Shown piece after piece: positions 33,413 through 35,632 of a stretch of DNA of 57,940 bases. Source of the DNA: an uncultured archaeon (GTDB lineage Archaea; Iainarchaeota; Iainarchaeia; Iainarchaeales; DTGL01); contig CAZKED010000005.1 in assembly GCA_964551725.1 (NCBI GenBank), positions 1 to 57,940 of the forward strand, in the 5' to 3' direction. The translations under genes and the position numbers were made by a program. Each line of letters begins with the position of its first letter. Position 1 is the stretch's first letter. The notes beneath the pieces are model-generated. The model did not search any database. It was not told the origin of the DNA and saw only the letters and a program-made list of their open reading frames with translations.

Positions 33413-35632
33413 ATGGGAAAAATCAGGGTGCCCCGGGGCTTGAGCCTTTCTTTTTTGGAGCGAATAAAAATAGGGAAAAAAGAGGCATTTTTCCTTCTGC
33501 TGGTGTTCCTTCTCGGATTTGGAATCAGGGCGCAGAACATTCAGCCCAACTACGAGTACTTTTTCGGTTTTGATTCCTACTACCACGCGAGAATGACCTC
33601 CTACATTATCCAGGACGGCGCAATCCCCGACAGGGACCCCCTCGCGTATTACCAGTTAGGATATGCCGCTCTGCCTGCCACAGGACCCTTTTTCTGGTAT
33701 TTTTCCGCGGCACTCTACAAAATAGGAACGCTCGGCGCGGCATACGACAAGGAAACGTGGATTTTTTTCGTCAAGCTCTTGCCCGCTTTGTTCGGCGCGT
33801 TGACCGCTGCGGCAATGTTTTTTTTCGGCAAGGAACTGTACGGAAAGAAAGCGGGCTATGCTACAGCGGTTGTTGCCGCGGTCGTTCCGAGCTTTGTTTA
33901 TAGGACGATGGCGGGATTCTTTGAAGAGGATTCACTGGGGTTTCTCTGGCTCGCAATCGGTTTTGTTTTCTTTTTGCGCTCCCTCAAGGAATTCAAAGTC
34001 AATGCGCGCTCGCTGGCGAATGCCGTTCTCGGCGGCGTATTTTTCGGAATAATGGCTTTCACCTGGGAATTTTACCTCATAGTGCCCGTGGTCATAGGTT
34101 TTTCCTTCCCCTTCATGCTTTTGAATGTCTGGGGCAAAAAGGAAAGGAAGGAAACAGGCGCGTTCTTGGTAAATTTCGCGGTTACCACCGCGGTTTTCAC
34201 TGTTTTGACTTTCATTCAGGACGGCGCTTCGTGGATTTTCCGCGGAACAAAATACATAGTAAATTCGCTTCCATTGGGAGCAACGGCAGGCGGAACAATG
34301 GGCGCGGCACTGGTCATAGTCGGCGCGTTCGCTGTGCTCATCTTCGGAATTTTCCTCTTTTTGATGCTTGCCGGCGGAAAGAGCGCGCACGGAAAAAAAA
34401 CGCGTTCAAGGATTCCGCTGCTTGCTTCAATGGTTGTTCTCTATGTTGCGCTTCTGGCGCTTTCAATTGCAATAATTGACCCGCAGGTAACCGATCCCGA
34501 GACAGGCGTGAAGGAAGGAATTTTTACCTCAAAATTCACGGAAAAGAGCGTTCTGGGCTCAACAATCGGGGAGGAAAGTTTGGGTAATCCCACTTTCGGC
34601 TACAAGTACAACGCGCTCATATTTTTGCCAGTCATCGCACTTGTCGCGATACCGGCATGGCTTTATTTTAGCCGGAAGGATTTTCTGTCCCCCATTGTGT
34701 TCTGGTGGGTTTGGATAACGCTTGTGATGGCGTGGTACAAGTTAAAGTTCACCTATGTTTTCGGCTTGCCCATTGCGGCTTCCGCCGGCTTTGTTGCCGC
34801 GGTGCTTTTCTTTTATTTCAAGGACAGGGAGCAGGCGGAAACAAAAGTCGTGGTGCTCGCACTTGCATTCATTCTATTTACAGGCGTTGCCGCGGGTTCC
34901 TACTTTGTGAGCAAGCGCCCACCAAGCATTGAAACAAGCCCTGCTTGGAAGGAAGCAATGCACTGGATAAGGGACAACACGCCGGAGGATTCCAAACTCT
35001 TCAACTGGTGGAGTTACGGGCACTGGCTTGCGTTTGTTACAGAAAGGCAGGTTTCGCTGGACAACAGGAACTGGAGCTTGGACGGCGACGCCAACTACGC
35101 GCAGTTCATTCTCGAGAACGATGTCAACAAAGCACTTCCGATTATAAGGGAGTTCGGCTCGGATTACATTATAATAGAGAGCGGCGAACTCGCGGGGCAG
35201 CATTCAATGCTCATTTACGCAAAACTCAAGGTGGATTACGGTCCGGCAAAGCCGGAGAACAGGCCCTATTTTTTCACCATTTCCTATGGCGAAGGCGTGT
35301 CGCAGTTTGTGCCCGGCTTTTTGCAGCTGCCCTGCGTGAAGCAGGCGGGCACTTACAACTGCTCCGGTCTCCAGTTCTCGGAAGAGCAGATGCGCTCCTA
35401 TCTGACGGGATGGCAGCCCGAGCCGAACATTACAATAGACAGCGATGACACGGCTGCAGCATATGCTAACGGTCCGGACTTTTCCTCGCTGCTCTTGTTT
35501 TCCCCCGGGGCAAACAAGTCAATGGTCACAAGGCTCTGGTTGGGTGATCCCTCGCTGGACCAATACTTTGAAGAGGTTTTCGCCAACGGTGTGGTTAAAA
35601 TTTTCAGGGTGAAGGAGTCTGTTTTCCAGTAA
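33413..35632 (+). CDS. aglB: Oligosaccharyltransferase AglB/STT3 with variant WWSYG motif
   Basis: Multi-TM N-terminus, FDSYYH, GFFEED, TIGE, WWSYGHW, LDN; heads a glycosylation locus. Confidence 0.88.
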   Translation: MGKIRVPRGLSLSFLERIKIGKKEAFFLLLVFLLGFGIRAQNIQPNYEYFFGFDSYYHARMTSYIIQDGAIPDRDPLAYYQLGYAALPATGPFFWYFSAALYKIGTLGAAYDKETWIFFVKLLPALFGALTAAAMFFFGKELYGKKAGYATAVVAAVVPSFVYRTMAGFFEEDSLGFLWLAIGFVFFLRSLKEFKVNARSLANAVLGGVFFGIMAFTWEFYLIVPVVIGFSFPFMLLNVWGKKERKETGAFLVNFAVTTAVFTVLTFIQDGASWIFRGTKYIVNSLPLGATAGGTMGAALVIVGAFAVLIFGIFLFLMLAGGKSAHGKKTRSRIPLLASMVVLYVALLALSIAIIDPQVTDPETGVKEGIFTSKFTEKSVLGSTIGEESLGNPTFGYKYNALIFLPVIALVAIPAWLYFSRKDFLSPIVFWWVWITLVMAWYKLKFTYVFGLPIAASAGFVAAVLFFYFKDREQAETKVVVLALAFILFTGVAAGSYFVSKRPPSIETSPAWKEAMHWIRDNTPEDSKLFNWWSYGHWLAFVTERQVSLDNRNWSLDGDANYAQFILENDVNKALPIIREFGSDYIIIESGELAGQHSMLIYAKLKVDYGPAKPENRPYFFTISYGEGVSQFVPGFLQLPCVKQAGTYNCSGLQFSEEQMRSYLTGWQPEPNITIDSDDTAAAYANGPDFSSLLLFSPGANKSMVTRLWLGDPSLDQYFEEVFANGVVKIFRVKESVFQ

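Follow-up and report, generated by a model that had tools for sequence, protein, structure and literature searches.

The window analyzed here is a 57,940-nucleotide stretch of DNA from an uncultured archaeon (contig CAZKED010000005.1 of assembly GCA_964551725.1) of the Iainarchaeota (formerly Diapherotrites), within DPANN. It encodes an AglB-type oligosaccharyltransferase (OST) in which a serine, Ser534, stands at the place of the Asp in the WWDXG motif. Ser at this position is fixed and old in the clade of the window organism, and the Asp has been recurrently replaced across the phylum. To our knowledge, every structural account of N-glycosylation treats the WWD Asp as a strictly conserved residue and as the one that chiefly reads the +2 Ser/Thr in the N-x-S/T sequon. 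Here, in a whole phylum with single-copy OSTs, no fewer than 14 replacements have put Asn, Ser, Gly, or Glu in its place, with the other active-site residues invariant, and this phylum-wide pattern is of higher interest than the single gene. We consider it probable that the window AglB is active, that it is the sole N-OST of its organism, and that Ser is a selected and tolerated substitute for Asp.

An STT3-family enzyme with a WWSYG motif

The gene and the motifs discussed below are located in the window as follows. Conservation counts refer, here and throughout, to 102 AglB sequences of the order, with alignment positions numbered by the window AglB.

33413..35632, plus strand: aglB, STT3-family oligosaccharyltransferase, 739 residues (open reading frame, ORF)
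33572..33574, plus strand: D54 in DSYY, first of the catalytic acidic residues, located in external loop 1 (EL1); aligned to FDPYF of STT3A; 102/102
33923..33931, plus strand: E171-E172-D173 in FFEEDS, the DxD/DxE metal-binding motif in its ExD form; opposite D-N-E of STT3A in the alignment
34562..34573, plus strand: TIXE motif T384-I-G-E387, in external loop 5; E387 102/102, G386 100/102
35006..35020, plus strand: WWSYG motif, W532 W533 S534 Y535 G536, encoded by TGG TGG AGT TAC GGG
35060..35077, plus strand: D550-N-R-N553-W-S555, a DNxN block corresponding to DNNTWNN(T/S) of STT3; aligned to vDNNtWnn of STT3A
35204..35224, plus strand: S598-M599-L-I-Y602-A-K604, an MI-like (hydrophobic-x-x-Tyr) motif at the DK/MI place, directly after the STT3A-aligned segment

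The ORF is a full-length AglB/STT3 oligosaccharyltransferase, belonging to GT66 by its domains and fold. It is matched by Pfam STT3 (PF02516; E 4.6e-20, 72.9 bits against a cut-off of 24.5) and by AglB_core-like (PF22627; E 2e-08, 35 bits against a cut-off of 27). The AlphaFold2 model, built on 41 relatives, has a predicted local distance difference test score (pLDDT) of 89.7 and a predicted template-modeling score (pTM) of 0.88, and it displays the multi-pass membrane domain and the C-terminal mixed alpha/beta globular domain of the GT-C fold. The top 19 Foldseek matches are all OST catalytic subunits, with template-modeling (TM) scores of 0.54-0.70. Yeast and human STT3 are the best of these (E 1e-20, TM 0.6-0.7), followed by AfAglB-L and PglB, while other GT-C enzymes lie far behind. 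An alternative TTG start at 33440 yields a protein of 730 residues, which is the form used in public gene calls; the corresponding database protein, P0001 (730 residues), is 100 % identical to the window AglB.

An earlier note on this DNA had reported an AglB with WWSYG at 35006-35020, and re-reading of the codons and alignment of the motif to the WWDYG of STT3A bear this out. The segment klfnwwSyghw of the window AglB aligns with kvmswwDygyq of human STT3A (PDB 6s7o; phmmer/HMMER against PDB sequences), so that both Trp and the Gly are kept and the codon AGT at 35012-35014 takes the Asp position of WWDXG. The same note had allowed for a read-level error in this codon. Such an error can be dismissed, because positions 34900-35130 are identical in independently assembled contigs from four public metagenome runs at ~10x word depth (two sediment runs from 2018 and two seawater runs from 2021, which, from their equal record lengths, look like two data sets filed in duplicate) and because all WWS relatives, including a 69 %-identical congener, share the Ser. 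Its codon is AGY in every WWS orthologue of the GTDB family. We thus assign a negligible probability to a sequencing or assembly artefact.

The metal-binding motifs DSYY, FEED, and TIGE, which the earlier note had described as retained, are indeed conserved: the catalytic EL1 Asp and the TIXE Glu are invariant, and the metal-binding pair is found at E171 in 94/102 and at D173 in 84/102 sequences. D54 corresponds to D56 in PglB and to D47 in both AfAglB and yeast Stt3 (PMC7226087). W532, W533, G536, H537, D550, N551, and N553 are each present in 102/102 sequences and R164 in 101/102, whereas position 534 is occupied by Asp in 65, Asn in 17, Ser in 14, Gly in 5, and Glu in 1. Lability is confined to position 534 amid invariant active-site neighbors, with purifying selection around the site. 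A decaying gene would not be expected to show such a pattern. N553-W-S555 (35069-35077) is itself a sequon and lies where eukaryotic STT3 has its glycosylated DNNTWNN(T/S) motif; its +2 position is Ser in 27/102 and Asp in 45/102 orthologues of the order.

The genome of the window organism measures 1.17 Mb in 41 contigs and is 92.8 % complete. A Pfam STT3 search of the assembly finds a single AglB. Searched without filters in all six frames, the genome gives aglB at 948 bits with a full-length family hidden Markov model (HMM), and the next match has an E value of 0.13. The second canonical AglB that the earlier note had envisaged elsewhere is thus absent from the assembly by both searches, and none of the 13 genomes of the window's GTDB family contains a WWD-type copy. 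The ~530-residue second GT-C ORFs of sister genomes were considered as hidden AglBs and rejected, as they have no WWxxG motif. A canonical WWD AglB might lie in the ~7 % of the genome that is unassembled, in which case the window copy would be a specialized paralogue; an assembly of 92.8 % completeness in 41 contigs leaves room for this, and two AglBs do occur together in a few genomes of the order, such as G094, which has WWNEG and WWDYG. Against such a hidden copy stand the 13 of 13 family genomes without it and the 35 of 106 genomes in a sample of the order that have no Asp-type AglB at all, and we regard it as highly improbable.

Residue 534 across the Iainarchaeota

All 13 genomes of the window's GTDB family lack the Asp, with WWSYG in 10 and WWGSG in 3. 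Their AglBs group as a clade with 99 % support, within which path lengths reach ~1.3 substitutions per site. Among 120 database homologues, the motif reads WWDEG in 56, WWDYG in 17, WWSYG in 13, WWDQG in 12, WWN.G in 10, WWSQG in 2, and WWSWG in 1, and 15 of the 16 Ser forms fall into one group within a 100 %-supported clade of the homologue tree. An even sample of the order, in which the motif could be read in 106 of 121 genomes, comprises 70 genomes with Asp only, 15 with Asn only, 14 with Ser only, 5 with Gly only, one with Glu and Asn, and one with Asp and Asn. A phylum-wide scan for the DNA pattern of N-W-W-x-x-G-H gives, among the 146 motifs listed, 93 with Asp, 21 with Asn, 20 with Ser, 11 with Gly, and 1 with Glu, a non-Asp share of 36 %. 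About a third of the phylum has swapped the WWD Asp for Ser, Asn, Gly, or Glu, making this residue less essential than textbooks say.

The exact string NWWSYGHW was searched for in 185,579 prokaryote species genomes. It is found in nine AglB genes, all from Iainarchaeum or from metagenome-assembled genomes (MAGs) of uncultured archaea, and the remaining four matches are out-of-frame chance matches. An identical 21-nucleotide match for N-W-W-K-N-G-H occurs in two genomes of genus g3 (G080:C66:1468-1488 and G118:C105:8014-8034), on contigs other than those of their AglB genes, and represents either a conserved unrelated gene or an unrecognized AglB-like fragment.

The tree of the 102 order sequences requires at least 14 state changes at position 534. 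Separate Ser clades are observed in families f1, f31, and f15, with the Gly forms of f1 nested inside its Ser clade, and further Ser forms occur within g13, a Gly-rich genus of f11, and in g72. The Ser codon is AGY in f1, f15, and genus g33 of f31, and TCN in the sister genus g45 of f31. This codon pattern fits the single-step paths GAY to AAY to AGY to GGY. As Ser has been kept or regained in both codon families, selection appears to act on Ser itself. Taken with the tree, this argues for a residue that is selected and not drifting, having arisen separately in at least three or four clades (f1, f15, f31, and f11).

The possibility that WWS is a known and tolerated variant, raised in the earlier note, holds in part. 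The variant is naturally fixed and recurrent; no paper describing WWS was found. More broadly, the searchable literature yielded no description of WWSYG, WWN(Y/Q/E)G, WWSQG, or WWGSG in an OST context, and an earlier mention may exist. WWDEG is common and WWNQG recurrent among the AglB motifs; covariation of Asp loss with an acidic fourth motif residue was tested and found no support (independent-pairs sign test, median p 0.6).

Two further arrangements of the motif were encountered. The AglBs L037, L042, and L043 (genomes G027, G112, and G060, all of genus g2 in the window's family) carry W-W-G-S-G. These forms are nested in the WWSYG clade (AGY to GGY, TAY to TCY), as if the hydroxyl had shifted one residue along. 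Genome G055, a single 985-kb contig, has two AglB paralogues, L002 and L136, both without the Asp, one a long-branch WWELG form and the other WWNEG; in G094, of the same genus, the WWNEG copy is paired with a long-branch WWDYG copy.

The second element of the +2 pocket, the DK/MI motif, is also non-canonical in the window AglB. The stretch YIIIESGELAGQHSMLIYAKLK contains no DxxK. Both it and YIIIESGELAGQHS are aligned with a segment of STT3A whose end lies immediately ahead of the DK motif, and no DxxK comes after YIIIESGELAGQHS. AlphaFold2 predicts a helix at residues 596-604, at the DK/MI place. In the order AglBs, this place has Ser at 598 in 75 sequences, Leu, Phe, or Met at 599 in 91, Tyr at 602 in 95 and Phe in 4, Ala at 603 in 76, and Tyr or Phe at 604 in 82. 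The resulting helix, S-(M/L/F)-x-x-Y-A-(Y/F), is family-wide and common to WWD and WWS members. The earlier note was thus right that DxxK is missing here, but this absence is not tied to the Ser, because WWD members share the same helix. M599-x-x-Y602-x-x-x-K606 of the window AglB strictly fits neither DxxK nor MxxIxxx[I/V/W]. The family motif resembles the MxxI motifs of Methanococcus AglB (MTSIASVW) and Campylobacter jejuni PglB (MSLIFSTV) (PMC5131992), and for this reason S-M-x-x-Y is probably an MI-like family variant, with Tyr in place of Ile, that predates the Asp replacements.

Sequon use and the reading of the +2 residue

Sequon use was assessed in whole-genome gene calls, with proteins sorted by a simple signal-peptide and transmembrane heuristic. 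Counts of Ser/Thr at fixed offsets from Asn were compared with per-protein expectations, a test of low power. In the predicted extracellular proteins of the window genome (WWSYG), Ser/Thr at +2 of Asn is found 551 times against 465 expected (1.19x, z 4.4). The corresponding proteins of G002, a WWDYG relative (840 kb, 25 % guanine plus cytosine), show the same ratio (1.19x, z 5.3), and the cytoplasmic ratios are 1.09x in the window genome and 1.03x in G002. The other offsets in the extracellular set of the window genome (+1, +3, +4, -2, and -3) range from 0.92 to 1.04, and offset -1 is depleted in every protein class of this genome, reaching 0.78 in the extracellular set. Tyr, Asp, Ala, Cys, Val, and Gly at +2 were examined in the same set, and none is significantly enriched (z <= 1.6). 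There is no detectable sequon difference between the WWSYG genome and its WWDYG relative, and thus no hint of a change, the signal being small in both.

Asp at -2 of Asn is enriched 1.7-1.8x in extracellular and membrane proteins of the window genome. A few giant repeat proteins produce this signal, which for that reason only mimics a bacterial sequon; the bacterial-type D/E-x-N-x-S/T sequon was rejected, as D-x-N-x-S/T itself is not enriched. In one ORF of this genome (C1:48104-57527, plus strand), 102 D-x-N triplets occur within repeats of the unit I-(A/E)-D-(L/V)-N-x-E-L. Together with C25:5602-10266 and C4:16659-35902, it belongs to a set of giant surface or membrane proteins. The C4 cluster consists of four paralogous secreted proteins with ~2 sequons per 100 residues.

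In the scheme that we favor, AglB would take a glycan from its lipid carrier and attach it to Asn residues in proteins that are secreted or at the cell surface, the synthesis of this glycan being started by the putatively co-transcribed Alg7-like, Alg14, and Alg13 homologues. The catalytic set is canonical and comprises D54, E171-x-D173, the TIXE residue E387, and the two adjacent Trp. We infer both that AglB is active and that it reads N-x-S/T. The hydroxyl of Ser534, or a bridging water, may take over part of the role of the Asp, and the two Trp indoles may remain the main readers of the +2 hydroxyl. The pocket itself may be built differently in the Iainarchaeota AglBs, whose helix has the near-invariant Tyr where other OSTs have Lys (DK) or Ile (MI), and this would explain why the Ser is tolerated. 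These structural roles of Ser534 and Tyr602 are suggested by the alignments.

Several points weigh against this scheme. In PglB, D465 is the hydrogen-bond acceptor for both the backbone NH and the O-gamma of the +2 residue (PMC8479172; PMC7226087). Simulations rank this Asp first among the single contributors to +2 binding, and the residue is described as strictly conserved (PMC8479172). As it dominates the computed +2 interaction energy, a neutral and shorter Ser should weaken binding. The sequon statistic is weak, given the cytoplasmic background in the window genome. In addition, the sequons of C25:5602-10266 are kept at 0.47, 0.25, and 0.29 in three orthologues from WWS genomes, against null values of 0.53, 0.25, and 0.38, so that sequon positions in this protein are lost and gained at the pace of other Asn and Ser/Thr residues; the excess of sequon density in this protein family is significant in the window genome only.

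Given what D465 does in PglB, a change of specificity is a reasonable hypothesis: AglB would be active, but its +2 pocket would no longer insist on Ser/Thr or would shift its Ser-versus-Thr preference, and by extension the Ser, Asn, Gly, and Glu variants of the phylum would be different specificity classes. The non-canonical DK/MI position and the clade-specific, stable distribution of the variants, as expected of functionally meaningful changes, agree with this idea. We nevertheless hold it to be rather unlikely. The extracellular N-x-S/T excess equals that of the WWDYG relative, no other +2 residue tested is enriched, both Trp are invariant, and Asp loss shows no detected covariation with the fourth motif position and is uncoupled from the DK/MI helix, which WWD members also have. 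In a related proposal, which appears unlikely, the +2 pocket has been rebuilt around the aromatic Tyr, making the WWD Asp dispensable, and the Ser, Asn, Gly, and Glu variants, each of them the only OST in its organism, represent natural classes of specificity or affinity; such classes would mean a relaxed reading of +2 or a shifted Ser-versus-Thr preference. That the protein is instead an inactive or repurposed OST homologue, such as a lectin-like protein, a scaffold, or a transferase for a non-protein acceptor, seems very improbable. A residue regarded as essential is missing, substitutions of yeast D518 have been reported as lethal, and DPANN genomes are reduced and fast-evolving. However, the other catalytic and substrate-binding residues are conserved across the 102 orthologues, the ORF is full-length in all relatives with a confident structure model, and the gene encodes the only AglB, in an operon with glycan-initiating enzymes. 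An active sole N-OST with a tolerated Ser therefore remains our preferred reading.

The variants constitute a mutational series made by nature, for which WWD orthologues of 40-70 % identity provide the matching counterparts. This series could serve to test the share of the Asp in sequon recognition and the changes in the pocket that make it dispensable. Whether neutral variants loosen the sequon is relevant to glycoengineering with single-subunit OSTs, and a rebuilt +2 pocket, if real, would provide a ready-made panel of such enzymes in which sequon recognition could be dissected and engineered. For the annotation of DPANN genomes, a literal WWD is unsafe as a criterion of a functional AglB.

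Known oligosaccharyltransferases and the glycan-assembly locus

AglB-L from Archaeoglobus fulgidus (PDB 3WAJ, 3WAK, 5GMY, 7E9S) has the same single-subunit GT66 fold as the window AglB (Foldseek E ~1e-18), and the profile match spans the whole membrane domain. Common to both enzymes are the catalytic Asp and acidic pair, the Glu of TIXE, the two adjacent Trp, and the Gly-His that follows the motif. In contrast, AfAglB-L has WWDYG, a DK motif, and ~870 residues with extra C-terminal units, where the window AglB has Ser and S-M-x-x-Y. The best matches in sequence and fold are the eukaryotic STT3 proteins (yeast Stt3 and human STT3A/B; PDB 6EZN, 8AGC, 6S7O, 6S7T), which share with the window AglB the DNxN block corresponding to DNNTWNN(T/S) and the Tyr at the fourth motif position. 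STT3 differs in its invariant WWD Asp, in the Lys of DK (K586 in yeast), and in being part of a multi-subunit complex; in the window AglB, Ser and Tyr take the places of this Asp and Lys, and partner subunits are not known.

Campylobacter PglB and Methanococcus AglB have a hydrophobic M-x-x-I helix for DK, similar to the (M/L/F)-x-x-Y-A of the Iainarchaeota family, but they keep WWD and have Ile where this family has Tyr. PglB also needs Asp or Glu at -2, whereas the window genome shows no D/E-x-N-x-S/T signal. The Desulfovibrio enzymes DgPglB and DmPglB are natural OSTs that combine WWDWG with "NL" at the DK/MI place, yet they glycosylate N-x-S/T (PMC12229607). They are a precedent for variation at this place without loss of N-x-S/T use; they differ from the window AglB in retaining the WWD Asp and in being bacterial.

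Downstream of aglB, the window contains the following genes.

35643..36674, plus strand: Alg7/AglH-like GT4-family sugar-1-phosphate transferase (Pfam Glycos_transf_4, PF00953, 1.5e-30)
36676..37146, plus strand: Alg14-like membrane anchor subunit (Pfam Alg14, PF08660, 8.1e-21)
37089..37634, plus strand: Alg13-like (GT28 C-terminal) catalytic subunit (Pfam Glyco_tran_28_C, PF04101, 1.5e-17)
39311-41863: RmlB-, RmlD-, and RmlA-like genes (dTDP-rhamnose pathway), then a GT2 gene, adjoining the aglB operon

The Alg7-like gene starts 10 nucleotides downstream of aglB on the same strand. As it is directly followed by the Alg14- and Alg13-like genes in the same orientation, aglB heads an N-glycan assembly locus. 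The listed Alg13-like ORF overlaps that of Alg14 by 58 nucleotides, and its true start is for this reason probably internal, further downstream. A GT1 gene, the RmlB/D/A rhamnose genes, and the GT2 gene come after alg13; the proximity of the dTDP-rhamnose genes to the aglB operon suggests a rhamnose-containing glycan. The operon partners Alg7, Alg13, and Alg14 mirror the start of the eukaryotic pathway, and the segment 35643-37634 presents a eukaryote-like beginning of N-glycan synthesis (GlcNAc-P transfer, then a second GlcNAc) in a DPANN archaeon.

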